A stretch of DNA of 60,942 bases from a virus (taxonomy: Duplodnaviria > Caudoviricetes): positions 1 through 60,942 of the IMG/VR virus record IMGVR_UViG_3300036908_000165. One strand, written 5' to 3'. Numbering within the stretch: position 1 is the first letter of the stretch; each line of letters begins with the position of its first letter. Below the pieces are notes generated by a model. The model made no database searches, had not been told where the DNA came from, and saw nothing but the letters and a program-made list of their open reading frames with translations. Below are positions 371-30,527 of this stretch, in pieces. A program made the translations under genes and the position numbers.

Positions 371-1441
371 TCAGATGACACTCGGAACTGTTCCGGGAAC
401 GGCCTGCCACGCTGCGCCGGTGATGCCCGTGACCTGCGCGCCCGTGGACGGTTTGGCGCAGACGAGATCGGCGCACGAAATGAGAACGCCGACATCGGCG
501 ATCTGGCCGACGTTGATCAACGGCTCGAACCCCGAGAAGGTCATCGACGCGTATTCGGACATGTACATGCCGGTGTAGCGGCTGTTGATGAAGAACGCCT
601 GTCCGAGCGGGCAGAACGGATCGGGGAAGATCGGCGTGTCGAGCACCTTGATGCCGCGGAAGCCCGAGTTGACCACGTCGTCCTTCTCGTAGATCGAGCG
701 CGGACGAGTCTGGTACATCTCGAGGCTCATGAAGTCGGTCATCAGCTCGGCCCAGTTGGCCGGGTTCATGACGCCGAAATCGGGGGCCTCACCACCGGCG
801 CCGGACTGGATGCGCGCCAGGATCTGCGCGCAGCCGACGCGCGTCGTAACCGCGGCGCCGGTGTTGTTGATCAGCTGGCCGGACCAGAACGAACCGGGGG
901 TGCGCGGGATGCCGCCGTAGGACGGAACGTTGGTGCCGTCATCGTAGGCCTGCGACAAGCTGTCCCACATCTGTCCGTTGGCGTAGTTGTTCGAGTAGAG
1001 CGCCTGCGCGTAGGCCTGCTTGATGACGACCGCGGCGTCCGACATGACGGCGCGCAGCTTGGGGATGACGACCTCGGAACTCTGGAGAATCGACTCCATG
1101 CCGAAGAAGCCGATCGGCACCATGCCCATCTTGAGGCTGAACTGCGCGTTCTGGATCGCCGCCTGGTCGGTCGGCATCGGGAAGTTGCCGTCGAAGCCGC
1201 CCCACGAGAACTGGACGAAGGAGTTGCCCTGCACCGGAACGGTGATCTGGGAAACGCCGCCGCGCGCCGCCTTGCTGTTCGACATGAACAGGCTAAGTAA
1301 CGGATGTGATTGATAAATTTGAACGTAGCAGGTAGGCAAGAACGCCCTTCTGGTAAGTGCCGCCATCTGTGCGCCAAGCGCCCCACCGGGGGTGATGCCA
1401 GAACCCGTCAACGTCGAAACCGGAGAATTCGGGTATGCCAT
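371..1441 (-). CDS. Major capsid protein
   Basis: 356 aa, GC3-biased codons, GAAGGAG RBS, downstream of a scaffold-like gene. C-terminal GIKVLDTPIFPDPFCPLGQAFFINSRY resembles HK97-fold capsids. Confidence 0.8.
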   Translation of the reverse strand: MAYPNSPVSTLTGSGITPGGALGAQMAALTRRAFLPTCYVQIYQSHPLLSLFMSNSKAARGGVSQITVPVQGNSFVQFSWGGFDGNFPMPTDQAAIQNAQFSLKMGMVPIGFFGMESILQSSEVVIPKLRAVMSDAAVVIKQAYAQALYSNNYANGQMWDSLSQAYDDGTNVPSYGGIPRTPGSFWSGQLINNTGAAVTTRVGCAQILARIQSGAGGEAPDFGVMNPANWAELMTDFMSLEMYQTRPRSIYEKDDVVNSGFRGIKVLDTPIFPDPFCPLGQAFFINSRYTGMYMSEYASMTFSGFEPLINVGQIADVGVLISCADLVCAKPSTGAQVTGITGAAWQAVPGTVPSVI

Positions 1442-1524
1442 CACAGCACTCCTTCAAGCATGACATCGCGCCCGACGTTCTCCACGTCGAGCGCGATGAA
1501 TTTGGTGGCGGTGAGACGGGTCAT
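1441..1524 (-). CDS. 27-aa coupling peptide MTRLTATKFIALDVENVGRDVMLEGVL
   Basis: ATGA overlap with the scaffold stop and TGATG overlap with the capsid start. Confidence 0.45.
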   Translation of the reverse strand: MTRLTATKFIALDVENVGRDVMLEGVL

Positions 1525-2099
1525 TGGATGCCCAATGTCTCCCGCGTGAAACCGTCCGGGTCACGCAAGAACGCCTCGATCTGATCGTCCCGGTGCTTGT
1601 CCGGATTGCGATGCAGTTCCGCCCGAGCCTCGTCCGCGTTCTTCGTACCGAACAAGTCGAGATCCTGGCTACGCCAAGTCGGGCCGGCCGGCGCGGTCGG
1701 CGGCGTCTTGGAAGCGACCCAAGCCGCAGCGGCGTCGGCGTCGGCATAATTGCCGGTCTCTTTCATCCGGCCGACCATCTTGTCGAAGCCTTCGTCGGTC
1801 AGGTTGTATTCCTGCCGGGCTTTCGCCAGGGCGGATTCGAGATTGGCCTGCGCGGCGCGCTGCTCGCGCGCTTCCTTGTCGGCGGCGCGCGAGGCTTCCA
1901 TGTCGTCGAGACGCTTCTTCAGCGCGGCGTTCTCGGCCTGAAGCGGCGCAACGAACGGCGCCACGGTGTCGTCGATGATCTTGGCGTCGGGGAACTTCGC
2001 CTTGGCGGCGCGGCGAACCTTCTCGCCGATCTCGCCGTCGCTCCACAGCTGCTCTAACAGCTCGGCGGCGCGAATCTGAGCTTGGGTGGCTTCGGCCAT
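1521..2099 (-). CDS. Putative capsid scaffolding protein
   Basis: Start MAEATQ at 2099; helical, charged, coiled-coil; just upstream of the capsid gene. Confidence 0.6.
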   Translation of the reverse strand: MAEATQAQIRAAELLEQLWSDGEIGEKVRRAAKAKFPDAKIIDDTVAPFVAPLQAENAALKKRLDDMEASRAADKEAREQRAAQANLESALAKARQEYNLTDEGFDKMVGRMKETGNYADADAAAAWVASKTPPTAPAGPTWRSQDLDLFGTKNADEARAELHRNPDKHRDDQIEAFLRDPDGFTRETLGIQ

Positions 2100-2100
2100 T

Positions 2101-2301
2101 TTACTTGGCCCTCGGCGCCGAGCCGCGCGACCCGTCCTTGCCGACGTGGTCGATCGACTTAATTCCGCTGAGACTGCCCTTCGGCTGAGCCGACGGGCGC
2201 GCGCCGATGCCCATCGCATCGAAATCGGCGACGTATTCCATCAGGCTGCGATCGATCTTGACGTCGCCATCGTAAGGCTTGGGAAATTTTCCGCTGGTCA
2301 T
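2101..2301 (-). CDS. Small head-module protein, 66 aa
   Basis: CAGGAG RBS; abuts its neighbours. Confidence 0.6.
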   Translation of the reverse strand: MTSGKFPKPYDGDVKIDRSLMEYVADFDAMGIGARPSAQPKGSLSGIKSIDHVGKDGSRGSAPRAK

Positions 2302-2302
2302 A

Positions 2303-2704
2303 TCAAGCTCCTGGCATCGGTGGCATTGGCGAACCGCCGCCCGCGGCGGGCGGAGGTGGAGAAGCAGCGCCCGCTCCGGGCATCTGCGGGGCCGGCGCGC
2401 CGGCCTGCTTGGCGTTTCGCGCCATCTCGACGAGTTGCTGGATCATCGCGCCGGGATCGCCCTTCGCGCCGCCCTCTTTCTCAACAGCTTTGCCGATCTC
2501 GGTCAGAGCCTTGAGAACGGCGGTGTGGACGCCGGAACCCATCGGGAGCGCAGGAAGGGCTTCTTGCAACCCTTTGAGCGACAATTTCAGCTTCTCCATG
2601 CCGCTTGCCGCCGCGCCCTTCATCGGACCGGGCGCCGACGCTGGGCCAGCCACGCCCGCCTGTGGCGGGGAAGGCGGAGCGCCGGGCATCATCGGCATAG
2701 GCAT
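2303..2704 (-). CDS. Pro/Gly/Met-rich head-module protein, 133 aa
   Basis: GAGG RBS; helical core with disordered Pro-rich ends. Confidence 0.65.
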   Translation of the reverse strand: MPMPMMPGAPPSPPQAGVAGPASAPGPMKGAAASGMEKLKLSLKGLQEALPALPMGSGVHTAVLKALTEIGKAVEKEGGAKGDPGAMIQQLVEMARNAKQAGAPAPQMPGAGAASPPPPAAGGGSPMPPMPGA

Positions 2705-17282: not shown

Positions 17283-17311
17283 AGACTGTTTCGTGGCGGG
17301 TGCAAGCGGCC

Positions 17312-17674
17312 TCACGCCGCAGGCGGATCACGCAGCGATTCGAGAAATTCGATTTCGGCGCGCGCCGCCGCGCGAAATGCCGTGCCGTCATCCCGACGCA
17401 AGCCCCGATTACCCATGGCCAAGGCAGTCTGCCACGCTCTCAGGGCGTCCATGGCGGCGCCGTATGGTGTCTTCTTGCACCAGACCAAGCCGGTGCGCGC
17501 CATGACGGGACAGTCGTAACAGTCATTACCGTCGTCACGTTTAAACAGCATGCACAGTGCGCAGGAGCTGCAGCCGATATACACCAAGCGAGGATCGGGC
17601 GCCTGAGCAACGGCCTTCCAGTGCACGATCGACGCCTCGAGCGCTTCGCGTGTCGTTTCTTTCATGGTGGTCAC
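17312..17674 (-). CDS. Cys-rich hypothetical protein (CALC...CYDCP)
   Basis: GAGGAG RBS; putative Zn-binding. Confidence 0.6.
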   Translation of the reverse strand: MTTMKETTREALEASIVHWKAVAQAPDPRLVYIGCSSCALCMLFKRDDGNDCYDCPVMARTGLVWCKKTPYGAAMDALRAWQTALAMGNRGLRRDDGTAFRAAARAEIEFLESLRDPPAA

Positions 17675-17880
17675 TCCTCTTGCTCACGAATGGCCTCAGC
17701 CTCACGCTCGCGCCATTCGGCGGCCTCCTTTGCCTCGCGATCGCGGTCGAGGCCGAGAGAAGACAGCAGAATGTCGATGGACAGTCGCTCGCGTATTTTC
17801 CGGTTCGCTTCGGCCTGCCTGTCCCATTCTGCGGCGCCACTGGCGACGTGTTTCTCATTCTCATTCTCTGTCATCGACAT
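17671..17880 (-). CDS. Hypothetical protein
   Basis: GAGGAG RBS. Confidence 0.55.
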   Translation of the reverse strand: MSMTENENEKHVASGAAEWDRQAEANRKIRERLSIDILLSSLGLDRDREAKEAAEWREREAEAIREQEE

Positions 17881-17918
17881 CTAGCTCCTCGTGTTGGCGG
17901 TGCACGCCGCCATTCGCA

Positions 17919-18767
17919 TTACATGGCCTCGTCGAGGAAGACGACGCTGACCCCCGGCCTCGGCGCTTCGACGACCGTCACGGCTTGATAGACCGTGAAC
18001 TTCACGCCCGGCCTGATCAGGGCGAGGCGGCCGGCTTCGGCTTCGGCCGATCCGCGCCGATCGTGCTTGAAGGGCCAGAGCGCCGCGCCTCCGTCGCTGA
18101 CGACGATGAAGGTCTGCGGCTTCTCGGGGTCGACTAGCGCCGCGACCGCCGGCTTGGGCGCCTCGGCGAGCGTGATGTCGTCGAGAGAGCAACTCCAACG
18201 CGATCCGCCAAATCCACTTATGTCAACGCGGTTTCCCCCGGTCCATCCGGGGAACTCGACAATGGCGTGCCCTAGTCCCCGGTTCAGACTTATGATCTTT
18301 CCCGCGGTCAGCGGCGTGCCGTAAAGACTCGTGTTCTTCGTAACCCAATCGCCGACCTTGAATTGACGTGGCTCGGCGATTTTCACGTCGGCCCCGCGCT
18401 TGAGCGCCGTGACGAATTTGTTATGGACCCAAATCTGCCTGCCGTCATCAACGACGAGAAGACGCATATCGCGGTTCCCATCGTGGTCATCCACGGCAAC
18501 AACCAAACGGTCCTCGCCGGGCGCCAATGGCGAGTCGGCGGAAACCGTCACGGTGTCGCCGACGCTCGCCGCCTCGGCCGGCAAAATCAAGACGAGTTGC
18601 TCCGACAACATGAGATGATTCGCCCCGCCGAAATCGATGATCGGATAGCGCCCGTCGAACCCCGATACCTGGCCGACCGCGCCATTAACGAGGCCAGCGT
18701 CGCGGTCTATGCAATAGGCATAGATGAGCTTGACCCAATCGCCCTTTTTGAATTCAGGCATTTGCAA
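17919..18767 (-). CDS. Hypothetical protein with repeated SH3/KOW-like modules
   Basis: FKKGDWV, VGDTV and FKVGDWV repeats. Confidence 0.6.
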   Translation of the reverse strand: MQMPEFKKGDWVKLIYAYCIDRDAGLVNGAVGQVSGFDGRYPIIDFGGANHLMLSEQLVLILPAEAASVGDTVTVSADSPLAPGEDRLVVAVDDHDGNRDMRLLVVDDGRQIWVHNKFVTALKRGADVKIAEPRQFKVGDWVTKNTSLYGTPLTAGKIISLNRGLGHAIVEFPGWTGGNRVDISGFGGSRWSCSLDDITLAEAPKPAVAALVDPEKPQTFIVVSDGGAALWPFKHDRRGSAEAEAGRLALIRPGVKFTVYQAVTVVEAPRPGVSVVFLDEAM

Positions 18768-19262
18768 CTCTCTCTTGATGCGGCGCCGGAATTGGCGCGT
18801 TGATTGAGCGGGCGGCGCGCCACCGTTTCGCGTCGCGCCAGTTCGTCCAGGCGACGATCGCCGGCGCGATCAGGCCGAGAAGGAGAATGTCGAGGTAGGT
18901 CATTCTTCCGCTCCGATCATGCCAGGACGTACAGCGCGACGATGAGGACGCAGGCCACGAACTCGGCGAGAAGGCCGAGGGTGACGGCGGCTGAACGCAA
19001 AACCCCATAGCAGGCCAACAGGATTGCGAGAGTCATGGGGCTTCTCCTACCCATTGGAGGCGCAGATGCTGTGACGCGCATTTCCCAGCCTCGGCGTTGA
19101 ACCGGTTGACGAGAGCGTAGCACTCTTCGTCGCTCATCGACCACAGCCCGGCGATGACGCCGTCGGCAACGGATCGTGCCGCGCGCTTCGCCATGACCTC
19201 GTCATAGCGGCCGTGCATCTTGCCGAAGATATTCTCTACCGGGTAGCTATTTGCCGTCGGGC

Positions 19263-19445
19263 TCATGGTGTGCTCCTGTTCAGGGTCGCCGGATCCGGCT
19301 TGTCGAGATGCTTGCGCAACGCCGCGACGATCAGTTCGCTGCGCCGGAGATCGCCGGTTCGGCACAGGGCGTCCATCGCCTCGGCCAGGTCGACCGGCAT
19401 GCGCAGCGCCATCTGGACGCTGCGGCGCTTCTTGTTGTTCGTCAA
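19263..19445 (-). CDS. CopG/RHH-like regulator
   Basis: VQMALRMPVDLAEAMDALC...RRSELIVAALRKHL; start uncertain. Confidence 0.6.
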   Translation of the reverse strand: MTNNKKRRSVQMALRMPVDLAEAMDALCRTGDLRRSELIVAALRKHLDKPDPATLNRSTP

Positions 19446-19656
19446 TTGCACGGGTCTCGTTCCTGATTCTTCGATGATTCGTCGTTGCCGTCTCTCCGAG
19501 CTGTCAAGCCTAATAGCGGCGGCTTTCCCTGGTGACTCGGCTGTCGACCTGTTCGCCCCGGTCGTCGGTGTGCGGCTACATGCGAGGCTCCTCGGATTGT
19601 GCTTCAAGCAAATCATCGCGAGGAGACTGTCGCACAATCGAATGACAATTGTCAAA

Positions 19657-21909
19657 TCATTTTTTGGCGTATCTTTTTGCTCGATAACCGTGAGCGGTTA
19701 GGGGGAGCGTCGCCGCCCATGCAGGGAGATCGAGCATCAAGCGCTCCATCTCTTCGACCGAGCCGAACGAGCGGGGAACTTCGGCGACAGCTTCGTCGTA
19801 GACGTGCAGGACGATCGGATAGCCGGCGTCTTCGCACTTGCGCATCGCTACTCGTAAAATATCGGCTTCTGCTCCTAAGCAAATGTTTTCCATCAACAAT
19901 CCGCCATATAGGCCGTAGCGGAGCATCTTCTTCTTCGTTGAATCGTAGCCCAGCGCCGTGACTTTGGGCGACGTCGCGCCCTGGATCTGCGCTCGCCCCA
20001 CCAGCGCCAGCTTCTCCGCCTCTTCGCGATCGACGACTTCGGCTTCGCCCAGCGAAGCGTCCTCGAGCCGCGGCTTGGCCCAGACTTGATCTTTCAGCCG
20101 CGGCGCGGCGTAGGCGACGCAGCGGCCGCTCGGCAGTCGACACCAGAGGTAGCCGCTCTTGTAGAGGTAGTTGATTCGTCCCAGCGCCTGCTGCTTGACG
20201 CCCGGCTCTCGCAGCGCGCGGCGCGCCGCGTCTTCGAGGTCGCCCCAAGCCGATTCGATGTCGGCGTTGTGCTTCCGCCAGGCGTTGACGACGAGCATGC
20301 AGGCCAGCCACGCCTCTCGGCTGAGGATGTCGGTCTTCTGCCGGTCACGGCTCTTCAGGCGCTGCTCGTAGCGCTTGACGGCGCGCTCTCGCGCCGGTTC
20401 GTCGGCCGCCGACCAGACGCCGGGGTATAGGTTGTGCAGGTCTCGGCGCAGCATGTTGTAGTTCGCCGCCATCGACACCAACGCAGCAACCGAACCCTGG
20501 AAGCCGAGAGCGAGCTCGGCGACCTTGCCGATTTGTCGGCCCCAGTGTTTCTTGGTGACGACGTCGGTCGTCGTGTTGAGAATGCCGGCGGCGGTGCGGC
20601 GGTAAAGATCCGGCAGCGTCGGATCGGCGATGATCTCGCGCATCGCCTGCAGCTTCCATTTTTCGCCGGCGTACCAGGCGCAGAGCGCACCTTGGATGCC
20701 GGAGTAGTCGACGGCGACGAAGTCCTTACCGGGATCGGCGATGAGAAAGCCGCGAATCGCATCTGATACGAGGTGGGTCGGCTTGCCGAGATCGTCGCCG
20801 TACAACGTCCGCAGCATCGCCGGTTCTTCGGTGCGGAAAGCGGCGAACAGCGTCGCGGGGTCGAGATCGGCGTCGTCGAAGGCCGGTCGCGGCCGCGGCA
20901 TATTGTAGAGGTTGACGCCTCCAGCCGAAGTCCACCGTCCCGGCCCGGTCCCGTGATAAACGAAAAGTCCGCGCACTTTGCTGTCGGCGCAGACGTGAGC
21001 GAGGAACGCCTTCAACTTGCTCGTTGATGGTTTCACCGCCTCTTGCCGCAGCGTCAGCGCCTTGCGCGTCGAGTCCGGCAGGTCGTCGAGTTCGAAGGCT
21101 TCGAGGATGTCGTCTTTGGCGACGCCGTCGAGGAAGACGCCTTGAAGCGTCAACCACCGCGATAGTTTTGACGCCTGCGTGCAGGCCGTTACGTATCCGC
21201 CGGTCGTTTCGGCCATCTCGGCGTCGAGACGGGCTTTTTCCTTGTCGATCAGCCGCAACGCCGCGCGCGCCGAGGCGACGTCGATGCGCACGCCGCGCCG
21301 GTTGATCGTTTCGCTCATCCGCCACACGGCGATCTCGTCTTCCGACAGCGGGATCATCCGCGCGTCGGCTTCGCTCTCGGCGCGCACATCGTCGTCGCAG
21401 TAGCCGCGAAACTGCTCGAACCTCTCGGGATGGTCGATCGGCTCGTGGAACTTGATTCCCGTCTCGCCGGCCGTAAGCTTGCGGGGCGTGCAGAAGAACT
21501 GGATCAGCGCCTTGCCGATCTTGTCCTTCTTGACGACGAGGTCGAGCGCCTCGCCGAGCTTCTCCAAACTCGCCGGCAGGCCCAAGGCCGACGCTGCCGC
21601 CATCGTGCAGCGCCATTGGTTCAGGTCGATCTTCGGCCAGCCGTAGCGCGGCGTAAGGACCCGCTCCCACAGCAGGGCCTCGAACGAGCCGGCGTTGTGG
21701 CCGACAAATCGTCCGCCCGTCATGGCGTGGCGAGAAACCGTCGGCGGGCAGGGTTCGCTCGGTAGCCAGCGCTCGACGCAGTGCTCGCCGGTAAACTTGA
21801 ACGAGGCGCACAGCGGCGCGGTGAGCGGCGACTCGAAGTAGACGTAGGAGCCGGCGGCGCGGATGTTCACGTCGCTCTTGGTCTCGAAGTCGATGTGGAT
21901 CTCATCCAT
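19657..21909 (-). CDS. Family A DNA polymerase (phage type)
   Basis: Exonuclease IDFET, HNA, YCDDDV; polymerase VDYSGIQ, RQIGKVAELALGF, HVYDE. Confidence 0.92.
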   Translation of the reverse strand: MDEIHIDFETKSDVNIRAAGSYVYFESPLTAPLCASFKFTGEHCVERWLPSEPCPPTVSRHAMTGGRFVGHNAGSFEALLWERVLTPRYGWPKIDLNQWRCTMAAASALGLPASLEKLGEALDLVVKKDKIGKALIQFFCTPRKLTAGETGIKFHEPIDHPERFEQFRGYCDDDVRAESEADARMIPLSEDEIAVWRMSETINRRGVRIDVASARAALRLIDKEKARLDAEMAETTGGYVTACTQASKLSRWLTLQGVFLDGVAKDDILEAFELDDLPDSTRKALTLRQEAVKPSTSKLKAFLAHVCADSKVRGLFVYHGTGPGRWTSAGGVNLYNMPRPRPAFDDADLDPATLFAAFRTEEPAMLRTLYGDDLGKPTHLVSDAIRGFLIADPGKDFVAVDYSGIQGALCAWYAGEKWKLQAMREIIADPTLPDLYRRTAAGILNTTTDVVTKKHWGRQIGKVAELALGFQGSVAALVSMAANYNMLRRDLHNLYPGVWSAADEPARERAVKRYEQRLKSRDRQKTDILSREAWLACMLVVNAWRKHNADIESAWGDLEDAARRALREPGVKQQALGRINYLYKSGYLWCRLPSGRCVAYAAPRLKDQVWAKPRLEDASLGEAEVVDREEAEKLALVGRAQIQGATSPKVTALGYDSTKKKMLRYGLYGGLLMENICLGAEADILRVAMRKCEDAGYPIVLHVYDEAVAEVPRSFGSVEEMERLMLDLPAWAATLPLTAHGYRAKRYAKK

Positions 21910-22384
21910 AGGATTTTGCCAGCCAGCCGAGCTTCTTCGCGTTGACGAGCGCTTGCACGCCCGCCGGGCCCGCCGCCATCAGCGCCGTGCCGCTTCCCGG
22001 CGAGCGCCCGATCGTCCCGTCCGGCCGTTCGAACTTCACCTTCGGCGACAAGAACAGCACGGCGTCGGCGCGGTGCGCCGCCCATTGGAACCACGGCGCC
22101 GACGTCCGATCCGGCATGAGCGCAACGCCGTTGCCGTGCGCAAAGAACTTCTCCAGCCACGGTCGGATTGCGTTGCGACCGCCGAACGGCGGGTTCATCC
22201 AAATGAAATTCCTACCCCACGATGTTTCAAGGCCAAAATGCGGCAGCCACGAGTTGCACGGTGCGTGCTTCGGCCCTGAAGGCGGAGATGCGACGTCGAG
22301 GCCGAAGACGACGCCCATCGCGTCGAAGATGTATTTCGGCGTGTGCCAATCGTCGGATTTGCCGGCTGTTTCCCATCTGCTCAT
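21902..22384 (-). CDS. Phage N6-adenine DNA methyltransferase
   Basis: DDWHTP, LDVAS, WMNPPF. Confidence 0.85.
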   Translation of the reverse strand: MSRWETAGKSDDWHTPKYIFDAMGVVFGLDVASPPSGPKHAPCNSWLPHFGLETSWGRNFIWMNPPFGGRNAIRPWLEKFFAHGNGVALMPDRTSAPWFQWAAHRADAVLFLSPKVKFERPDGTIGRSPGSGTALMAAGPAGVQALVNAKKLGWLAKSYG

Positions 22385-22562
22385 CGGTGATTCCAGTACC
22401 AGCGTCGCTGCCTCTCACGATTGCAGATGCGGCAGCAGCCATCGTCGCGTCGGTCGGCGTCGCCGTGCCGGCAGGCGTTGCGCTTCCGCTCTACGGCGCG
22501 CCGCAGCGGGTCTTCCCAGGCGGCGCGGATCGCGTCGTTGCGCGCCGCCAGCGCTTCGGGCG

Positions 22563-22889
22563 TCACCGGGGCCAGCCGATCGTTCGGTAGATGATCGGCA
22601 CGCCGAGGCCCTTGGCCGCTTCGATCCCGTCTTTCATGCCGTTCGATATGCCGAGATCGTCGTAGACGGCGACGAAATCCGCCGCTTGCATCCACGCGTG
22701 GCCGGCGGCGATGCCGCGCTGGCGCTCGACCGGCACGGCGTCGTCCAGCGCGCCGGAGCCGGCGTATGTGACGTGACTCGCGAGCGGCGCTTCTCCCCGA
22801 AGCAGGCTGTCGCGCAACACGGCGCGGGCGTAGGCGAGGTTCTTGGTAACGTCGCCGGCGTAGGGCGACTCGATGATGGTGAGCTTCAT
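22563..22889 (-). CDS. Nucleoside deoxyribosyltransferase-like protein
   Basis: IIESPYAGD, PLASH, GISNGMKDGIEAA pattern. Confidence 0.55.
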   Translation of the reverse strand: MKLTIIESPYAGDVTKNLAYARAVLRDSLLRGEAPLASHVTYAGSGALDDAVPVERQRGIAAGHAWMQAADFVAVYDDLGISNGMKDGIEAAKGLGVPIIYRTIGWPR

Positions 22890-22904
22890 CCGAACAGATC
22901 CTCT

Positions 22905-24497
22905 TCAGGGGCGGCAGGCGAGCGCGGCTTCGATGAACGCCGCGGCAACCTGGGGGACGATCGAATTGCCGTAGGCGCGCAGTTTGCCCACTCGGGCGGG
23001 TATCCCATGAGCAAGAGGAAACGGGATCATGCCAGCGCGCTCCGCTTCGTATGCGAGAGCTTGTGACAGGACGGGCAGAGCGTTTGCAGATTGTCCGGCG
23101 CATTGTTGGCTGGAGTTTCGTCCCTGTGGTGGACATGCAGTTTCCGATCGGTTGCGCCGCAATTCTCGCAGGCCAGCTTCCGGTGTTTGCCAGCACGCAG
23201 ATGGTAGGTGGTCGAGGAATCGCCACCCTTCTCTCGCGAGTTCGCGCAAAAAAGCGAGCAGAACCGGCGCTTCGTAAACGCTCCGAAATCTTCTAGGCGT
23301 CCGTGGAAGCGACTGCGTTGCAAAACTGAGCCACAGGTCTCGCAGTGCTTCTCTGGTGTCGGCTTCGCTGATCTTGGCATCGGTTAACGCTTCCTCGATT
23401 TTGGAGAAACTGTCGGTGCGCAGTCGTCCCAACATTTCGGATAGCCCATCAGCCATCTGCTGTGGGCCGGGCTCAACTGGCCTGCTTTTGCCGTCCCGAC
23501 ACTCAAGCCAATCGGTTTCGGCCCAAGGGCCTCGGCTGCGTTGAGGCTGCGCCCCTCTTGAAAGTCCTCCGATCTGCGTTTCTCGTTCGCTGTCGGCGTT
23601 GCCCACGGCGCTTCCTGACTGCCGTGCGCATCCGGGAAGCCCCACTTGTTTGCCCGCGGTGTAGACCAAGCTGCCGTTCTCGGTAGGGAAACTTGCTTCC
23701 TCCCCTCGATATTTCTCGCTCCTGCCTTTGCGTCCTCCCCGTTCGGAGTCGGCCATGCCGCCTGCGCCGCTTGCCCCGACAGATGCGGCGCCCCGCTCCT
23801 GTCTCGCGCGTTCGGCCCCCCGTGGTCGCCGTCCGTCGCTTGGGGCGTTCGCCACGAGGCTGTTTTCGCCATCACCTGAAGCGACGTGATCGCCGTTCGC
23901 TTGCTCCCCGTTCCGTCGCGCTCGCCCATCCGCAGCTTCATCGCCAGATGCGCTTCGGGCGATTTGTTGTCGTCGTTCGCCACCGGCGTCGGCCACGAAC
24001 CACAATCGCTGTCGGATATGTGGAGCGCCGACGCTCGCAGCAGGCAATACGGCCGCCCCGCAGGCGTAGCCTTGTCCTTCCAGGTCAGAGAAAACAAGGT
24101 CGAGCCAGCCGTGGCCAATTGCCGCTTCAACCTGCTCGCCAAACACTCGGTCAGGTCGCGACTCTTTGATGAGCTTGAACCATGCGGGCCAAAGGTGTCG
24201 ATCATCGGCGGCGCCTTTACCTTGTCCGGCGGCGGAAAATGGCTGGCACGGGCAACTTCCGGTCCAAAGCGGGAGATCGTCGGGGATGCCGGCGAGTCGC
24301 AGGGCGTAGGCCCAGCCGGCGATTCCGCTGAAGAAGTGGCAGCGGGTGAATCCCCACAGGTCCATTGGCTGGACGTCTCGGATGTCTCGTTCGTCGACAA
24401 AGCCATCGGGAATGTGCCCCGCTTTCATCAGGTTGCGCGTCCACTGCGCGGCGAATGCGTTATTTTCGTTGTGGTAGTCGCGCGGTATTTCTTCCAT
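22905..24497 (-). CDS. C5 cytosine DNA methyltransferase, alpha-like polypeptide
   Basis: FFSGIAG, SCPCQPFS, GEQV, HIRQRLW and motif X YGNSIVPQVA. Confidence 0.9.
   Translation of the reverse strand: MEEIPRDYHNENNAFAAQWTRNLMKAGHIPDGFVDERDIRDVQPMDLWGFTRCHFFSGIAGWAYALRLAGIPDDLPLWTGSCPCQPFSAAGQGKGAADDRHLWPAWFKLIKESRPDRVFGEQVEAAIGHGWLDLVFSDLEGQGYACGAAVLPAASVGAPHIRQRLWFVADAGGERRQQIARSASGDEAADGRARRNGEQANGDHVASGDGENSLVANAPSDGRRPRGAERARQERGAASVGASGAGGMADSERGGRKGRSEKYRGEEASFPTENGSLVYTAGKQVGLPGCARQSGSAVGNADSERETQIGGLSRGAQPQRSRGPWAETDWLECRDGKSRPVEPGPQQMADGLSEMLGRLRTDSFSKIEEALTDAKISEADTREALRDLWLSFATQSLPRTPRRFRSVYEAPVLLAFLRELAREGWRFLDHLPSACWQTPEAGLRELRRNRSETACPPQGRNSSQQCAGQSANALPVLSQALAYEAERAGMIPFPLAHGIPARVGKLRAYGNSIVPQVAAAFIEAALACRP
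23027..23380 (-). CDS. HNH endonuclease nested in the MTase gene
   Basis: CENC...HVHHRDETPANNAPDNLQTLCPSCHKLSH. Confidence 0.85.
   Translation of the reverse strand: MPRSAKPTPEKHCETCGSVLQRSRFHGRLEDFGAFTKRRFCSLFCANSREKGGDSSTTYHLRAGKHRKLACENCGATDRKLHVHHRDETPANNAPDNLQTLCPSCHKLSHTKRSALA
23384..24406 (-). CDS. Alternative-frame MTase beta-like polypeptide
   Basis: Five W-x-TP repeats and motif IX-like LSPAHSRWLMGYP; exact start uncertain. Confidence 0.7.
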   Translation of the reverse strand: MALSTNETSETSSQWTCGDSPAATSSAESPAGPTPCDSPASPTISRFGPEVARASHFPPPDKVKAPPMIDTFGPHGSSSSKSRDLTECLASRLKRQLATAGSTLFSLTWKDKATPAGRPYCLLRASALHISDSDCGSWPTPVANDDNKSPEAHLAMKLRMGERDGTGSKRTAITSLQVMAKTASWRTPQATDGDHGGPNARDRSGAPHLSGQAAQAAWPTPNGEDAKAGARNIEGRKQVSLPRTAAWSTPRANKWGFPDAHGSQEAPWATPTANEKRRSEDFQEGRSLNAAEALGPKPIGLSVGTAKAGQLSPAHSRWLMGYPKCWDDCAPTVSPKSRKR

Positions 24498-24504
24498 TAT
24501 CGCC

Positions 24505-24774
24505 TCACAGCAAACCGAGTGCGGCTAAATATAGATCGAGTATTTCTTCTTCTTCGCGCCACTTCGCTTTGTCCATGGCGCGGATGCGCACAGCCTTGCG
24601 CATGATCTTCGTGTCGAAGCCATTTCCCCTGGCTTCGGCGTAGATGTCTTTGATGTCGCCGGCGACCCCCTTCTTCTCTTCCGTTAGGCGTTCGATGCGT
24701 TCGATGAACGCTTTCAATTGGCCGCCGTTCAGACTGTTGTCGCCGATCCGCGGTCCTTCGGGTTGCTTCGCCAT
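24505..24774 (-). CDS. GapR/DUF2312-family DNA-binding protein
   Basis: [44 protein letters not shown]. Confidence 0.9.
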
Positions 24775-24974
24775 CACTCAATTTCCTTCTCTGCTGCTAG
24801 CCACACGGGCATCGTCACTTCGGCGAGCTTGTGGCGCTGGCCCTTGTATTCGATTTCGATCTCGCTGCGCGGCAGCCACACGTTGATTCCGTCGTCGCGC
24901 ATCACCAGGATCGCGTTGTCGGTCGGCTCGTCGCGGACGACGCGCAGCGTGTACGTAAAGAGTTCTCTGCTCAT
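24774..24974 (-). CDS. Hypothetical protein
   Basis: VWLPRSEI...VTMPVWLA, a common small phage protein pattern. Confidence 0.6.
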
Positions 24975-25156
24975 GGAGCCTCCACAACGGTCCACGGCCA
25001 CGCTCGACAGACCGGCGTCCTTGCCGCAGCATCTTCGGCTTCCTCTACGGATGAGAAAGTAGCGATAGGCGGGTCATCGCCTTCGCCAGTGTCGATTGCG
25101 ATGATGCGGTTGCCGTTCGGATTGCGAACGAGGATGACGAAAATCACAGGAATCAT
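24971..25156 (-). CDS. Hypothetical protein
   Basis: GAGG RBS; ATGA overlap downstream. Confidence 0.55.
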   Translation of the reverse strand: MIPVIFVILVRNPNGNRIIAIDTGEGDDPPIATFSSVEEAEDAAARTPVCRAWPWTVVEAP

Positions 25157-25257
25157 GATCGCCTCGTGATTGGTGGCGGCCACACCGCTCGCTATGCGTG
25201 TCGAGTGTGACCGCCGTTTCCAGCGCCATCGCGATTTGCTGCTGCTGCTGCTGCTGC

Positions 25258-25359
25258 GTTCTAGCAGGGAACGCGGCGCGGTCCAATCGCAACCATCGCT
25301 TGAGTACAGCGCCGTAAGCGGCCGTTCTAGCAGGGAACGCGGCGCGGTCCAATCGCAAC
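25258..25359 (-). CRISPR. Mini CRISPR array, type II-C-like, no cas genes
   Basis: Two identical 36-nt repeats GTTGCGATTGGACCGCGCCGCGTTCCCTGCTAGAAC (25258-25293 and 25324-25359) around a 30-nt spacer; intergenic. Confidence 0.82.
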
Positions 25360-25386
25360 GGCTACGCTGTTACGCAGCGCCGGAAA

Positions 25387-26046
25387 TCAGAACGGGATCT
25401 CGTCATCTCCGAAAAGGCCGCCGGCGCCTTTACCGTTCTTTGTCTCTTTGGGCGCTTCGCCTTCGTCGGCGATCGTCTCGGACCACTTCTCCTTGTCGAT
25501 CGGACCGGCGCCGCCCAGCCGCTCGCCTTCGGTGTGCTTCTGGAAGCCCTGGATCCCGAAGCTGACGCCGTCGCCGCTCTTGTCGTTGTGCCAGGCGAAG
25601 CAGTTGAGAATCGCCTTGCCGTAGCAGCCGGAGTAGACGGTCGTCTCGTCTTCCTGCGCGTTCGGATCCTTCCACCACACGGCCGGCGGCCGGTCCTTGT
25701 TGGCCGACGGGCGAATGAAGAACACGTCGGGGCCCATGCCAGGATGAAGCTCGCCGCTGGTCTTGTTGCGTGCTTCCTTGCCGTCGCCGGCGAGGAAGGG
25801 ACTCTTGATCAGGCCGGCTTTGGCGTTCTCGATGCCCTTCGGGCCCCATTCGGCGACGATCGTTTCGGCGACGCGTTTCTGCAATTCGGCGCGGAACTTC
25901 TTGTCAAAGATGAGCGTGCAGCCGAACTTCGGGTCCTTGCCCTCTTCCTGGGCGCGCGCCTTGAACAGCGACTGTGCGTAGCTCAGCCGGCACAAATCGC
26001 CCTTACCGGCAGGGGCTTTGAAATCGTTAGTACGAGCTTTTGCCAT
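25387..26046 (-). CDS. ssDNA-binding protein (DUF2815-like)
   Basis: RLSYA, VYSGCY, GVSFGIQGFQK..EGERLGG and acidic DDEIPF tail. Confidence 0.85.
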   Translation of the reverse strand: MAKARTNDFKAPAGKGDLCRLSYAQSLFKARAQEEGKDPKFGCTLIFDKKFRAELQKRVAETIVAEWGPKGIENAKAGLIKSPFLAGDGKEARNKTSGELHPGMGPDVFFIRPSANKDRPPAVWWKDPNAQEDETTVYSGCYGKAILNCFAWHNDKSGDGVSFGIQGFQKHTEGERLGGAGPIDKEKWSETIADEGEAPKETKNGKGAGGLFGDDEIPF

Positions 26047-26047
26047 T

Positions 26048-27364
26048 TCAGTTCTCCAGTTTCTCATGATGCCGCTCGGTCAGGCCCTTCGCCGCCGGTC
26101 GGGACGTTTTGCCCTCAGAGACCAAATTTGTGCCTTTGACGGGCTTCTCCCACAGCACTCCTTCGAGCGCCGCAAGTTCTGCTTTACGCTTGCCGAGCGT
26201 CTTTTCGAGCTGCGCCACCGAACGCACCGAGCGCTCGAATATCTGATCGTCGGATAGTGCCAGCTTAGTCTTGATCAGCGCAGCAAGCTTTGCTTCATCT
26301 TTTTCGACGTACGCGCGGTTGCCGATCTTGTCGACAATCACCCAGCCGGGGATCTGCACGCCGCGCTCGGCGGCGTTGTGCGCGTAGCCTCTGAGCGCCT
26401 TCGCCCAGTTTTCCAGAGCCTCGAGGCCGTCGAGCCAGTGCGCCAGCTCTTCCGGCGAAGCGATCTCCGGCGCATTGCCAACGACCAGCGGCGCGTCCGT
26501 CGTCGGCTCTTCGAACCATCGCACGGCCGTGTCGCTCATGACCGACAGCGCCTCTTTGCGCCGCTTCGGGCAGATGCCTTCTGCAGGACAAAACGTGCAG
26601 CTTCCGGTCGCCAGCCACGTCTCAGCCCACGCGTCGAAAGCGATACGCCCGCCGTCGAGCGCTTCGAACGCGTCGAGCGCCAGCTTCGACGCGGTCATTT
26701 TCGAGAGCAGGTCGACGGACCAGTCGATGAGATCGGCGACGTGGATATCTTCCCACGTCGCCGATCTCATCGGCTTGCCGCCGCCGACGCGTGGCTGAAC
26801 GATTGTCGAGCGAACCACATCGACGGAGACGCCGGTCAAAGACAGCAGAAAGCCGATCGCGTAGCTGCGCGCCTGCATATTCCCAGCGGCCTTGACGACG
26901 ACGCCGCGCCCGCCCTTTAGATCGACAACCTCCAACATGCGCCAGAGCGGGAAGTAAATGCCGAAATCTCCGGTGCCGCCAGCATCGAGCGGTGGATCGA
27001 GCGAGGCGAGAGACAGATGCTGCTCGATCCAGAACTGCGCGTCCTCGCCAATCGCTGCTTTGTATTCGGCGAGCCGGCTGCGACAGTAGTCGACGTAGAC
27101 CTGCGATGTGTTCGCCATCTCCTCGTCGACGAGGAATTCAAACTTGCCGGATTTTTCAATGCCGCCGAGAAAGCTGTTCGCGTCGATGTTTCCGTGCAGG
27201 CAGCGCTCAGAAATCTGATGGCAGCACGTCCCCCACGCAGCGGCTTCGGTCTCTTTGGCCTCGCACATCGTCTCCATGGCGATGGCGCCGGCGCAAGTGA
27301 CGTTGCGCGATGTCGCACTCGCAGCCCATTGCGCATGGCTGCGAGTGTGGTGAGCGGCGTTCAT
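26048..27364 (-). CDS. DUF2800/Cas4-like PD-(D/E)XK exonuclease
   Basis: GTGD...VVDLKGG, QARSY, IVQPR, CTFCPAEGIC; located next to the SSB gene. Confidence 0.85.
   Translation of the reverse strand: MNAAHHTRSHAQWAASATSRNVTCAGAIAMETMCEAKETEAAAWGTCCHQISERCLHGNIDANSFLGGIEKSGKFEFLVDEEMANTSQVYVDYCRSRLAEYKAAIGEDAQFWIEQHLSLASLDPPLDAGGTGDFGIYFPLWRMLEVVDLKGGRGVVVKAAGNMQARSYAIGFLLSLTGVSVDVVRSTIVQPRVGGGKPMRSATWEDIHVADLIDWSVDLLSKMTASKLALDAFEALDGGRIAFDAWAETWLATGSCTFCPAEGICPKRRKEALSVMSDTAVRWFEEPTTDAPLVVGNAPEIASPEELAHWLDGLEALENWAKALRGYAHNAAERGVQIPGWVIVDKIGNRAYVEKDEAKLAALIKTKLALSDDQIFERSVRSVAQLEKTLGKRKAELAALEGVLWEKPVKGTNLVSEGKTSRPAAKGLTERHHEKLEN
27277..27359. repeat. 83-bp inverted repeat, copy 2
   Basis: Reverse complement of 11873-11955 with one mismatch. 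Confidence 0.95.
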
Positions 27365-28422
27365 GATTGCACCGCCCTCTTGAACGGGTTGTCGCGCACC
27401 GCCTCGTAGACCGCCGTCATTGCCTTGCCGTAGCCCTCGGGCGTCTGCGGAGCCGTCTTCAAACCGACAACGCCGGCGCCGAATGTCGCGACGAAGATCT
27501 TCGGCATGTCTTCCGTGGTGTAGGGCATTTTCTTGGGGTCGTCCGACACGCCGTCGTATTTCTTGCCGTAGGCCATAATAGCCTCGACCACGTCGACCTT
27601 GGTGGCGTGGACCGGCTCGGTCGGCAGATCGGCAGGCTTCGCCTGCTCGGGCGCGGCGTGGCCGTCGATCGCCGCTTCGACACGCGCAATCGCAGCGCCG
27701 ATTTCTTTCTCGGGCACTTCGATAATCGGCATGCCGACGATCGTGCGGATATTGTCGATCGACGCCTTGGCGCCGAATTTCTCGGTGTAGCGGCCGACGG
27801 CGGCACGCAGATCTTCGATCGTCGGCTTGTCGCCGGCGCGCGCCGCGGTCTCGGCGGCTTCGTCAGCGGCGTCCTCGGGGTTGATGCGCTCTTCGCCGGT
27901 CGAGATCTCCGGCTGCTCCTCGACGCCTGGGAGCAGCGGCTCGGCGGAACCCGGCGCCGGCGGCTGGACCGGGGCGGCGGCGAAATAGGCGTCGTCGGCT
28001 TCGATCTGCGCGTTGGTCCGCCGACGGCGGCCCGGTCCGGCCCTGCCGCGCTCGCGAGCGCCGTCCATCGCAGTGGGTTTAGCCGGCGCTGCGGCGGCAC
28101 GAGCAAATGCAGATTCGCTGATCGTCCCCGTTTCGTCGACAACCTCGGCTTTGATTTTGTCGGCATATTCTTGTGCGAAGCGCTCTGCCGCGCCGCTGCC
28201 TGTTGATTCGACGCCGATCGTGTCTCCCGAGGCATCGCCGGTGTCGGCGTTGCTCATTTCAGCGACGTCGAGCGCCTCTGCAATGTGATCGACGGCAGCG
28301 TTAAGGTCTTCCGGTTTCCACACATGCAGCCCACGCACGAAGCCGAGCGCCTTCATGTGCGCGACGACGCCATCTTCGTAAACGAGGCTGTCGGGGATTA
28401 TGATTTCAATTCGAATGCTCAT
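27361..28422 (-). CDS. Acidic Ala/Pro-rich replication-module protein
   Basis: Start MSIRIE overlaps the helicase stop. Confidence 0.65.
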   Translation of the reverse strand: MSIRIEIIIPDSLVYEDGVVAHMKALGFVRGLHVWKPEDLNAAVDHIAEALDVAEMSNADTGDASGDTIGVESTGSGAAERFAQEYADKIKAEVVDETGTISESAFARAAAAPAKPTAMDGARERGRAGPGRRRRTNAQIEADDAYFAAAPVQPPAPGSAEPLLPGVEEQPEISTGEERINPEDAADEAAETAARAGDKPTIEDLRAAVGRYTEKFGAKASIDNIRTIVGMPIIEVPEKEIGAAIARVEAAIDGHAAPEQAKPADLPTEPVHATKVDVVEAIMAYGKKYDGVSDDPKKMPYTTEDMPKIFVATFGAGVVGLKTAPQTPEGYGKAMTAVYEAVRDNPFKRAVQS

Positions 28423-29746
28423 CCTACCACTCCGTTGATGCTCTTCCACAAATCCAGAAGCCGCTCGGCGATCTTGTCGTCGATCGACTGGTCGATCGTC
28501 ACGGCGCGCACGAAGCAGTTGCGCGGCTTGTCGACGTTGACGATGCGTTTGCTGACCTGCTCCATCAGCCGCGGGCTGAGCGCGTACTCGACCAGCCACA
28601 TCTCGTCGGCCGGCGAGAGATCGATCGCCTCGCCGGCGGACTTGATCTGCCCCAGGAAGATGCGGTTCGACGGCGCGCGAAAGCGCTTCTCGCAAGTCTC
28701 GCGATCGGCGGGCGAGGTCGACCCGTCCAATCGGATCAGGCCGAACGACTTAAGCCCCTCTTCCAAGATGTCGCCGACGTCGCGGTGCCAATAGGCCAGC
28801 ACGACCTTCTCGAGCCCGAGACGGAACTGCTCTTTGATCGCCTCGACGACCGCTCGCGCCTTGACGACGCCCGTCTGGCGCCACAACGGGCCGAGCTCCA
28901 TCTCGAGGTCGTAGGTTTTGCCCGAAGCGGCGGCAGCGAGGATCTCGCGCTCGCGCGGCGTCGCGGCGAAGCGCTTGCGATCGGCGGCGTCGACGACCAG
29001 CGGCAGCGTCTCGCAGCGCGGCGGCTGAATGCCGACGTCCTTCTGCGTTCGCCGCAGGAACGTGCCGTCGATCCTCTGGCGCAGTTCGGCCTCGTTCCGC
29101 CCGCCCAGCACGACCGGGATGCGCTCGCCATTCGGCAGCTTTTTGCGACCCATGCGGCAGTAGCGGTCGCGGAAGTCGTTGAAGCGCGTCACGTCGGGCC
29201 AGCCGCGCCGCGCCTCGAGCAGGTCGGGAAAGCTGGCCCGTAGGCGGGCCCAGCCATTCGACAGGTCGTGCGGGAAGGGCGAGCCCGACAAATGCCACAC
29301 GCGGTCGCCTGGCTGGATGATGGCGCGCGCCGTCAGCATCTCCGCGCCGTCGTCGACCGGCGCGCCGTAGACGTGCTGCGTGCGCTTGGCGTCGGGGTTG
29401 GACGCTTCGTGGTCTTCGTCGAGGATGATCAGGTCCGGCCGCTTGCCGATCGACCGCACCACCTTGTCCAGCATACCCCAGGAAACGATGCAGACGTCCG
29501 TCGGCTGCGGCGCGTCGGCGCCGATGACGCTGACGCGGCGCGGGATCGATTGCCACGCCGGGAAGGCCCTGCGCCACACGCCGCGGCCGCTGGCCGGCGT
29601 CACCACGAGAATGCTCCTGGCGAGGATGTAATCGGCGGCCAGGATCGCCGCGCCGGTTTTCCCACGCGTGGTGAGTCCCATAAAAAGGCGCGTCGCCGCG
29701 CAGCGAGGAACAGAGCCCCGTCGAGCTGAGTTTTGAGCGGAATCAC
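28419..29746 (-). CDS. SNF2-like superfamily 2 helicase, -1 frameshift at 29657-29663
   Basis: Frame 0 from GTG 29746 gives LWDSPRVGK; the -1 frame continues TGAAI, ILDEDH, LSGSP, AGEAIDLS. Confidence 0.85.
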
Positions 29747-29991
29747 TTGCGCAGCGTCAGCTTGAATTTCTTGAGGATGCCATCGGCGATCTCCTCCGCA
29801 ACATGCCCAGAGCCGAATTCGCTAAGGTGGCCACCTGCTAGGAGTTCGCCTTGAATCTCGTCGATCACGTCGATCAGCAGCTCGCGCGACAATTCGCCGC
29901 GCCGTGACGTGAGATAGGTCCGCGCCTCTTCGTAGGTCGGGAAGAATTTGTCGCCGACCGCCCACGCTCGCTCAGGTTTCAGCATAGCCAT
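29743..29991 (-). CDS. Hypothetical protein
   Basis: GGAG RBS; stop overlaps the helicase GTG. Confidence 0.6.
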   Translation of the reverse strand: MAMLKPERAWAVGDKFFPTYEEARTYLTSRRGELSRELLIDVIDEIQGELLAGGHLSEFGSGHVAEEIADGILKKFKLTLRK

Positions 29992-30032
29992 TTCTCCGTT
30001 TATCAGGTTCGCGCGTCTCTGATAACAACTTG

Positions 30033-30527
30033 TTACGCAGCCGTCAAGCTCGATTTTAGATTGATGGCGCGGATGAATTTCTCGGCGTAATAGCGCGCCA
30101 GCAGCGCCGCCTCGGCTCGACCGTGGTCCTTCTTACGCTTGAACAGATCGGCTTGCTGCGGCCAGAGGTGGATCGCTCGTGCGCGCGACTGTTCTTTGTC
30201 GGGTGAGAGGTTGAAGTGCTTCTTCCACACCGTCGGCGTGACGAAGTGTGTCGGTATTTGATGAGCCGCCACAATACCTTGCACGACGCCGTAAGCGACG
30301 CCGAACTTGAACGTCGAGCTGACGCCCTGCTTCGGCATGGCGCCGACTCGCTCGATAATCACAACGGACGGGTGCATGATGTCGATCGCCGCAGCCATGT
30401 TGGCGGCGTCGATGTTGCCGTCGACAACCGGCGCGTCCTCTGCGGCGACCATGTCACGGTCCGGCCAGTAAAAAGCATAAGCGCCGCTGACGCCAGGGTC
30501 GATGCCGAGGATGATAGATTCTCTCAT
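30033..30527 (-). CDS. RuvC-like Holliday junction resolvase
   Basis: ILGIDPG, IERV, PTVWKK, DHGRAEAALLA. Confidence 0.85.
   Translation of the reverse strand: MRESIILGIDPGVSGAYAFYWPDRDMVAAEDAPVVDGNIDAANMAAAIDIMHPSVVIIERVGAMPKQGVSSTFKFGVAYGVVQGIVAAHQIPTHFVTPTVWKKHFNLSPDKEQSRARAIHLWPQQADLFKRKKDHGRAEAALLARYYAEKFIRAINLKSSLTAA

Follow-up and report, generated by a model that had tools for sequence, protein, structure and literature searches.

Nested reading frames of a putative two-subunit phage cytosine methyltransferase containing a hidden HNH endonuclease gene

Gene arrangement at the locus

We examined a DNA methyltransferase locus in a tailed phage (Duplodnaviria; Caudoviricetes) associated with peat, using as window the whole IMG/VR virus record IMGVR_UViG_3300036908_000165 (60,942 bp). 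Three open reading frames (ORFs) overlap on its minus strand: alpha (22905..24497, 530 aa), beta (23384..24406, 340 aa) and an ORF for a small HNH endonuclease (23027..23380, 117 aa). Beta lies in the +1 frame relative to alpha, because 24497 - 24406 = 91 = 3 x 30 + 1, and the HNH gene and a short ORF following it share this frame, since 23384, 23027 and 22886 are all 2 modulo 3. At the junction, the TAA stop of beta (23386-23384) is followed by CCG and then by the ATG of the HNH gene at 23380. An initial annotation of this DNA had described a 530-codon methylase frame, a W-x-TP repeat ORF in its +1 frame with a stop at 23384, an HNH gene at 23380-23027 and a later motif X, and every detail was recovered from the ORFs and Pfam matches. 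As judged from the sequence, the 1.6-kb stretch most likely encodes three proteins in two reading frames. We propose that it probably specifies a phage 'orphan' C5 methyltransferase whose two polypeptides are read from nested frames, and that a mobile cassette with an HNH endonuclease has invaded it. The features used below are as follows, with the basis of each in brackets.

22905..24497, minus strand: ORF alpha, C5-methyltransferase large-domain polypeptide (ORF; Pfam DNA_methylase; phrog_363; M.HhaI alignment)
23988..24497, minus strand: catalytic part of alpha, with motifs I, IV (PCQ), VI (GEQV) and VIII (IRQRLWF) (translation; M.HhaI alignment)
23384..24406, minus strand: ORF beta, putative small-domain subunit, 340 aa from the first ATG (+1 frame; phrog_1008; tblastn)
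23996..24169, minus strand: first dual-coded zone, alpha motifs V-VIII over the N-terminal helix and hairpin of beta (codon-position conservation)
23486..23995, minus strand: W-x-T-P repeat region of beta, putative target-recognition domain, read in alpha as a stop-free spacer (repeats, conservation)
23387..23464, minus strand: upstream copy (U) of the overlap between motifs IX and X (IX/X overlap), in which beta reads HSRWLMGYPKCWDDCAPT and its tail (motif IX, C-terminus) and alpha reads degenerate PQQMADG...
23390..23395, minus strand: Shine-Dalgarno-like AGGAAG, 9 nt ahead of the HNH ATG and within the final codons of beta
23027..23380, minus strand: HNH endonuclease gene, 117 aa, in the beta frame (PF01844; phrog_1271)
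23034..23444, minus strand: loop of alpha (residues 352-488), without stops and read in the cassette's -1 frame (stop avoidance)
23012..23452, minus strand: 441-nt cassette in LMG-to-LMG register, its exact ends being ambiguous within a repeat of ~51-60 nt
22962..23024, minus strand: downstream copy (D) of the IX/X overlap, in which alpha reads PFPLAHGIPARVGKLRAYGNS and the beta frame is degraded (RFLLLMGYPPEWANCAPT)
22908..22973, minus strand: C-terminus of alpha with motif X (YGNSIVPQV...), located past the HNH gene (translation)

The catalytic and nested chains

Alpha carries, in this order, motifs I-VIII, a spacer off-frame of beta, a loop off-frame of the HNH gene and motif X. PHROGs assigned it to phrog_363 (E 5e-71). 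The Pfam DNA_methylase profile (PF00145) matched residues 71-169 only (E 6.7e-16, profile positions 58-160 of 324), and the alpha family profile aligned to residues 3-176 only of M.HhaI (E 5e-22), with the FxGxG, PCQ, E.V and R.R columns present. Motifs I, IV (PCQ), VI and VIII, by which a C5 methyltransferase is recognized, were all found on this one chain. Motifs IX and X were not found on one chain after a recognition domain: the GN motif is in alpha and the LMGxP motif in the +1 frame. The predicted alpha/beta enzyme would work like the members of the PF00145 family but is not itself a single-chain member.

Variability is highest at position 3 in the first ~105 codons of alpha, as expected if only alpha is selected there. 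Further along, a conserved block, CRDGK.RPVEPG, is located ~35 codons upstream of motif X, where it overlaps the conserved GQLNP..SRWLMG of beta. Alignment with M.HhaI also showed that ~36 residues between motifs I and IV are absent from the alpha family; ~50 conserved residues stand ahead of motif I (24348-24497, alpha residues 1-50) and may be a relocated segment.

Beta contains W-P-T-P-type repeats and ends with an LMGYP..W block. It matched phrog_1008 (E 4.5e-30) and, by tblastn, 232 phage records; in PHROGs the two frames form separate families, each labelled DNA methyltransferase. By motif, position and structure prediction, we assign beta as a putative small-domain subunit which would carry the whole putative recognition domain together with motif IX. 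The initial annotation had called it a beta-like subunit with a motif IX-like end. The nesting holds, while the label proved too narrow, the whole putative recognition domain and not motif IX alone being on this chain. The functional start of beta is likely the ATG at 24205 (273 aa). Around it, start-type codons cluster in adjacent alignment columns; of 69 loci, 43 have TTG and 28 have ATG. Folded alone, beta was predicted with confidence only in its N-terminal helix and hairpin, where residues 11-60 have a pLDDT of 71-89 per 10-residue block.

Paired open frames recur across the family

Scanning viral contigs with the beta alignment yielded 596 candidate stretches, 443 of which were confirmed as encoding beta relatives. 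The best 80 of these, three earlier loci and the window gave the 84 sequences analysed here. In 83 of them no stop occurred in the alpha frame (frame A) between the PCQ and GN motifs, locus L005 being the sole failure. The +1 frame (frame B) was open over 220-430 codons, with L065 (split) and L025 (237 codons) as exceptions, and the third frame (frame C) was fragmented into pieces of 10-156 codons. Nested open frames were also present in loci of 43-50% GC, and gp33 of Burkholderia phage BcepC6B shows the same two full-length open frames with no HNH gene. The spacing from LMGxP in frame B to GN in frame A was exactly 41 nt in 62 of 70 unique loci; the others carry either small extra inserts (five loci) or an HNH gene (three loci).

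Such extended opening is far from what synonymous shuffling predicts. Across the beta repeat region, alpha was open in 64 of 64 loci against 2.0 expected, with a mean of 3.5 stops predicted; these loci had been pre-filtered for an open frame A (only L005 failed), so that the test was not blind, which tells against our interpretation. Control frame C was open in 0 of the 64, with 7.8 stops observed and 6.9 expected. In the window itself the repeat region contains 0 alpha stops, compared with a mean of 3.0 in shuffled sequences, 2.4% of which were open.

Codon-position conservation divided the gene into five zones: an N-terminus constrained by alpha only, dual-coded motifs V-VIII, repeats dominated by beta, the dual-coded IX/X overlap and an alpha-only tail. 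In the V-VIII zone the three codon positions are about equally conserved (0.55-0.75). In the repeat zone position 3 of beta is least conserved, and amino-acid identity is 0.26-0.35 for beta versus 0.18-0.25 for alpha. The IX/X overlap is strongly dual-coded, with an identity of 0.71-0.89 at each codon position. The signature of two proteins was also seen at synonymous sites: in alpha motif VI, Phe is encoded by TTT and Val by GTT in 52 of 52 loci each, while these codons are used in 54/226 and 64/258 cases (24-25%) elsewhere in the same genes. This choice is silent for alpha and keeps two Leu TTG codons in beta, which shows protein-level selection on beta. The idea of the initial annotation that alpha and beta are encoded in overlapping frames is thus sustained by nesting in 83 of 84 sequences, stop avoidance, dual-coding codon patterns and selection on alpha-synonymous sites. 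Our literature search for a nested phage methylase family returned no description beyond the single enzyme M.EcoHK31I.

A sister architecture using all three frames was found in L112:1233-2658 and 22 other loci. In L112 the catalytic ORF (motifs I-VIII) spans 1233..2105, a +1 ORF (1249..2658) carries the recognition region, motif IX, a loop and motif X, and an HNH gene occupies the +2 frame (2102..2563). Of the 23 loci, 22 have no stop in the host frame along the HNH gene. Pfam gave no match on the host frames of these 23 loci, which were identified with PHROGs. Since beta-like sequence and the alpha C-terminus are here on one chain, the pieces appear to be linked functionally. In split C5 methyltransferases such as M.AquI, the catalytic motifs and the recognition/IX part are on different polypeptides, and the sister architecture is closer to this type of split. 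The genes of the window differ from it in being nested over ~1 kb instead of adjacent and in keeping motif X with the catalytic chain.

Predicted association of alpha and beta

Prediction of a complex between alpha (530 aa) and beta from the internal ATG (273 aa) gave a score of 0.88, compared with 0.27 for the best of three controls. In a benchmark this score was reached by 58 of 80 solved complexes and by 2 of 110 mismatched pairs, counts which are only rough here, as custom alignments were used. Separate runs agreed in at least 43% of contacts, with a partner pLDDT of at least 52. The contacts of lowest error joined motif X of alpha (residues 504-516) to the LMG block of beta (250-256). Alpha residues 145-163 contacted the N-terminal hairpin of beta, and beta residues 11-60 fell in the predicted interface. 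No residue of the alpha loop 352-488 was in the confident interface.

This modelling supports binding of alpha and beta to each other. The high score may also reflect likeness to solved single-chain C5 methyltransferases, because alpha and beta together are in effect a split enzyme. In M.HhaI, the large domain of the structure is built from motifs I-VIII together with X and the small domain from the recognition region with motif IX; alpha and beta are divided along the same line.

A hidden HNH gene keeps the host frame open

The 117-aa ORF matched the HNH profile PF01844 (E 3.7e-7, 30.6 bits for a cutoff of 21.4) and phrog_1271, and is the only copy in its record. In three HNH homologues, residues C13, C16, C41, C45, C71, C74, H84, H85, N93, N97, C102, C105, H106 and H110 are invariant. 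This arrangement of three ORFs recurs in Komagataeibacter phage phiKX1 and in contig L003. A scan with the HNH alignment returned 65 viral loci, from which 57 unique HNH ORFs were tested after leaving out 3 duplicates, 4 beta-HNH fusions and 1 weak match. Across the HNH gene, no stop interrupted the host frame in 56 of these 57, for an expectation of 0.3; frame C was open in 0 of 57. This test is fair and blind, because the loci had been picked by HNH similarity alone. For the window, the HNH ORF leaves 0 stops in the alpha frame, whereas synonymous shuffles contained a mean of 4.7 stops and were open in 0 of 3000 cases. Neither overlap, alpha/beta or alpha/HNH, looks like chance.

Identity in the HNH frame was 0.46 at codon position 3, versus 0.62 and 0.66 at positions 1 and 2, indicating that this frame is under protein selection. 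Amino-acid identity was 0.52 for HNH and 0.33 for the shadow reading in alpha. From these two observations the 137-residue loop of alpha would be a spacer.

The first start codon of the HNH gene lies 0-6 nt past the beta stop in 33 of the 37 loci listed with an upstream beta ORF (3 of the 37 being duplicates). Shine-Dalgarno-like AAGGAA and AAGG sites are also present in L002 and L003. This proximity and the AGGAAG of the window make translation coupled to that of beta plausible. In L090, L091, L104 and L105 the beta-frame ORF runs into HNH without a stop (442-550 aa), which would make a beta-HNH fusion.

No intron was found by Rfam in 22000-25500 at E <= 1, the sole match being sRNA-like (25074-25130), and no intein or Hint domain by Pfam at E <= 0.1. 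These results bear out the claim, made in the initial annotation, of an HNH gene inserted with neither intron nor intein while the host frame stays stop-free. Stops in the alpha frame of close relatives, which that annotation had named as counting against its reading, were looked for, and the frame was open as reported above.

Searching with HNH against genome contigs gave 119 pattern matches, none of which was confirmed. By tblastn, 67 records were matched, none from a Mycobacterium phage; more distant HNH relatives adjoin the terminase gene in Brucella phages. A further hidden gene was noticed in Staphylococcus phage CUB-EPI_14, of which gp45 (L150:442-2247), annotated as one gene, is an ordinary C5 methylase with a single chain of 601 aa. 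An unannotated 160-aa HNH ORF (1601..2083), 37% identical, lies in its +1 frame just ahead of motif IX.

Copies of the IX/X overlap on both sides of the cassette

The distance from motif IX to motif X is 482 nt in the window and 41 nt in 62 HNH-less loci, defining a cassette of 441 nt. In all 32 loci compared, insert length was divisible by 3. The cassette region (23000-23500) has a GC content of 0.565-0.59, versus 0.62-0.70 in the methylase flanks.

Two diverged copies of the IX/X overlap flank the cassette. When compared with the HNH-less consensus, the U copy scored 0.75 in the beta frame (HSRWLMGYP...) and 0.29 in the alpha frame, while the D copy scored 0.81 in the alpha frame (PFPLAHG...RAYGN) and 0.60 in the beta frame. 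The alpha reading was better in the D copy in 32 of 32 loci, and several D copies contain stops in the beta frame. The dual-coded overlap has thus in effect been unzipped into two single-coded copies. Past the HNH stop, the beta frame is open for 42 more codons from a TTG (22886-23014, minus strand), a stretch corresponding to the degraded downstream copy; this ORF terminates 3 nt into the next gene (ATG at 22889).

Patchy distribution of the cassette

None of the 80 beta-selected loci carries the cassette. On a FastTree phylogeny of 106 catalytic domains, 39 of them with HNH, the HNH state changed at least 19 times, 7 of these changes being forced by well-supported branches; shuffled HNH labels gave a mean of 31.6 changes. 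L048:1443-2893 (without HNH) and L097:420-2128 (with HNH) are identical in DNA over the first ~740 nt of the methylase. They diverge through the remaining recognition region and the cassette, then are similar for ~60 nt at motif X. This pair looks like a within-gene recombination mosaic. It is the best pair found for an exact comparison of filled and empty sites and was unusable for it, the entire 3' part of the recognition region being different. Patchy distribution, low GC, the mosaic pair and the hidden HNH gene of CUB-EPI_14 fit a mobile element.

Genomic setting

The locus is housed in the replication module, with a GapR-like gene, a DUF7768 gene, a Dam-like N6 methylase, a family A polymerase and an Enc34-type single-stranded DNA-binding protein as neighbours. 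The Dam-like N6-adenine methylase (21902-22384, minus strand; Pfam PF05869, E 3.5e-10) lies 520 nt downstream, so the phage has two DNA methylases in this module. Around 25170-25360, overlapping ORFs translate into a peptide stretch that is repeated and include successive glutamine codons, which suggests that the DNA here, intergenic or in small genes, contains a short direct repeat. No phage matched positions 15000-35000 by megablast.

The stretch was detected in sequencing runs from peat and permafrost metagenomes, and no indels were found at the frame junctions in the runs examined. In the DNA run X6, one contig joins 23012 to 23601, skipping 588 nt, and another skips 93 nt across 22755-22849; summed depth is lower over the cassette region. 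These joined contigs are weak evidence and may represent variant alleles in the peat population, one possibly without the cassette.

A model for the locus and its alternatives

The sequences show the three ORFs and their conservation, stop avoidance in both overlaps, frame-specific selection and the reciprocal decay of the two repeat copies; we infer that all three proteins are produced, that alpha and beta bind, that the enzyme tolerates the loop and that HNH homes into empty alleles. In this model, alpha (frame 0) would provide the catalytic large domain, its middle part needing only to lack stops, and beta (+1) the small domain, with a helix-hairpin N-terminal part, the W-P-T-P repeats and motif IX. 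The two chains would assemble into one enzyme, motif IX of beta packing on motif X of alpha. The cassette would have inserted just upstream of the host IX/X overlap, in frame with beta, bringing or retaining a second copy of this overlap. Beta would then terminate normally on the upstream copy, and HNH would be translated behind its own Shine-Dalgarno-like site, probably by reinitiation or coupling. Translation of alpha would continue across the whole cassette, which would become a 137-residue loop, and alpha would resume its own reading on the downstream copy.

Several observations weigh against this model. Beta gave no match in Pfam and NCBIfam scans, and the best match of its profile among PDB sequences was an unrelated peptidase (E 0.53). 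Its end is called motif IX because of the LMGxP..W motif recognized by eye, its position and the predicted contact with motif X. Folded alone, it has a mean pLDDT of 57, with repeats below 50, and among the 69 loci no single conserved beta start codon was found, only the TTG/ATG cluster. Only 23 of 32 loci preserve the beta reading better in the U copy, and 4 stops interrupt the host frame of one HNH relative, L103. An empty allele closely related to the window was not found; the nearest rows of the tree lack HNH, with a top identity of 69% over 115 columns. In metatranscriptomes, three runs contained small parts of the stretch, in contigs covering 24204-24571 and 22745-22904 only, and not the cassette; these RNA-library contigs, over the 5' end of the gene and the next gene, may be DNA carry-over.

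The alternative that fares best, though we regard it as unlikely, makes HNH a working partner of the methylase, for instance a nuclease of restriction-like or packaging type with its expression linked to that of beta, instead of a selfish homing enzyme. The position of HNH in the beta frame directly past the beta stop in most loci would suit such a partner, as would the fusions in L090, L091, L104 and L105, the recurrence of the association in 56 loci and two gene architectures, and the distant relatives beside the terminase in Brucella phages. However, a partner would hardly be absent from all 80 beta-selected loci or show at least 19 gains or losses on the tree. Identical catalytic domains occur both with and without HNH, the GC of the cassette is below that of its flanks, and a related HNH gene is hidden at the equivalent site of the single-chain methylase of CUB-EPI_14; these points favour a mobile cassette.

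A single polypeptide could also be made by two programmed frameshifts, +1 near motif VIII and -1 between motifs IX and X, the parallel open frames being by-products. Reading A-B-A would restore the canonical motif order (I-VIII, recognition region, IX, X), and the fixed distance of 41 nt from IX to X (62/70) would give ordinary spacing after a -1 shift. Yet no heptamer of the X_XXY_YYZ type was found in the IX-X interval in any of 62 loci, and homopolymers before the first W-P-T-P do not exceed 5 nt. Frameshifting has no need for alpha to be open over 140-250 codons (64/64 versus 2 expected), and leaves unexplained both the CRDGK.RPVEPG block upstream of motif X and a duplication serving each frame separately. 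We consider this reading very improbable, in favour of two separate chains.

We judge equally improbable that the methylase is inactivated or decaying, with beta or the read-through alpha non-functional and the open frames mere relics. Relics would have gathered stops, as frame C does, whereas stop avoidance and frame-specific conservation persist across lineages differing by 30-50% in sequence. Some room for decay is left by the second, Dam-like methylase nearby and by the dispensability of the methylase in related systems according to the authors who described the ShiLan domain (PMC11855218), discussed below.

Removal of the cassette before function, as an unrecognized intron in RNA or an intein-like element in protein, is the least probable of all: the repeat between the insert start and the sequence following the insert does recall intron guide pairing, as those authors considered (PMC11855218), but Rfam showed no intron and Pfam no intein or Hint domain, and a spliced intron needs neither a stop-free host frame (56/57) nor a length divisible by 3 (32/32).

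Returning to the mobile cassette in a two-chain enzyme, the IX/X overlap is constrained by two proteins and is for this reason conserved more strongly than any other DNA of the gene. A more speculative extension, which we put forward tentatively as possible but rather doubtful, is a homing element specialized for dual-coded DNA, which would target this overlap, carry a spare copy of it and borrow the ribosomes of beta. More boldly still, methylation by alpha/beta might block HNH cleavage, making a self-protecting, addiction-like unit.

Relation to known systems

As the initial annotation stated, an alpha/beta precedent exists. In M.EcoHK31I (E. coli, YGGCCR), motif IX is on beta, which is coded wholly within alpha in another frame; alpha carries motifs I-VIII, motif X and the recognition domain, and both chains are needed for activity (PMC2836561). 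The beta ORF is likewise wholly inside the alpha ORF in another frame in the window and its relatives. Alpha here also has motifs I-VIII and X, while the putative motif IX of beta is assigned from the LMGxP..W block and a predicted contact, no known methylase profile matching. In contrast to M.EcoHK31I, with its recognition domain on alpha, the putative recognition repeats and an N-terminal part of ~60 residues are here on beta, and the middle of alpha is a spacer. This N-terminal part overlaps alpha motifs V-VIII. M.EcoHK31I is compared here from its published description. The enzyme studied here is phage-borne and, unlike M.EcoHK31I, no restriction partner was seen.

The second precedent is the ShiLan domain, a hidden out-of-frame HNH in DNA methylases of mycobacteriophages (Arsenault, Gosselin and Gogarten 2025, PMC11855218; Gosselin et al. 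2023, PMC9957025). Both systems contain an HNH that is out of frame within a phage methylase ORF, a host frame without stops and no intron or intein signature. In both, the start of the insert resembles the sequence past the insertion site (here the U and D copies) and distribution is patchy (PMC11855218). The parasitism of a gene without splicing suggested by the initial annotation is therefore supported as a reading but is not new, having been published in 2025 (PMC11855218). The ShiLan authors also noted a repeat of this kind, for which they had no explanation, and they left translation of HNH open, suggesting leaderless GTG starts (PMC11855218). Differences were also noted. The host gene is here itself dual-coded and each repeat copy serves one frame; a second methylase frame is unmentioned in the main text of the ShiLan report (PMC11855218). 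HNH is here in frame with beta, 3 nt past its stop and with a Shine-Dalgarno-like site, a possible route of translation, and measures 117 aa compared with 195 aa in ShiLan (PMC11855218).

Homing endonucleases of the I-HmuI type, intron-borne or free-standing (named in PMC11855218), share with this element a small HNH with zinc-binding cysteines, a conserved phage gene as residence and patchiness. Unlike them, it has no surrounding intron, and the host protein would retain the insert as a translated loop.

Taken together, the arrangement combines two separately known tricks, the nested alpha and beta subunits of M.EcoHK31I and the hidden HNH of ShiLan. The mechanistic twist would be a subfunctionalized repeat and an HNH gene coupled to beta.

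Significance for phage genomes

The locus illustrates how dense phage coding can be, one 1.6-kb ORF holding two further genes. A selfish nuclease would have entered an already dual-coded gene with neither product destroyed. This offers an answer to both questions left by the ShiLan work: each copy of the repeat would serve one reading frame, and HNH could be translated from a Shine-Dalgarno-like site with the stop of an upstream same-frame ORF adjoining. The nested two-subunit family is large (443 of the 596 candidate viral stretches). Annotation is concerned as well, since gene callers list one frame or label such genes hypothetical or broken; in phiKX1 the region appears as three hypothetical proteins.

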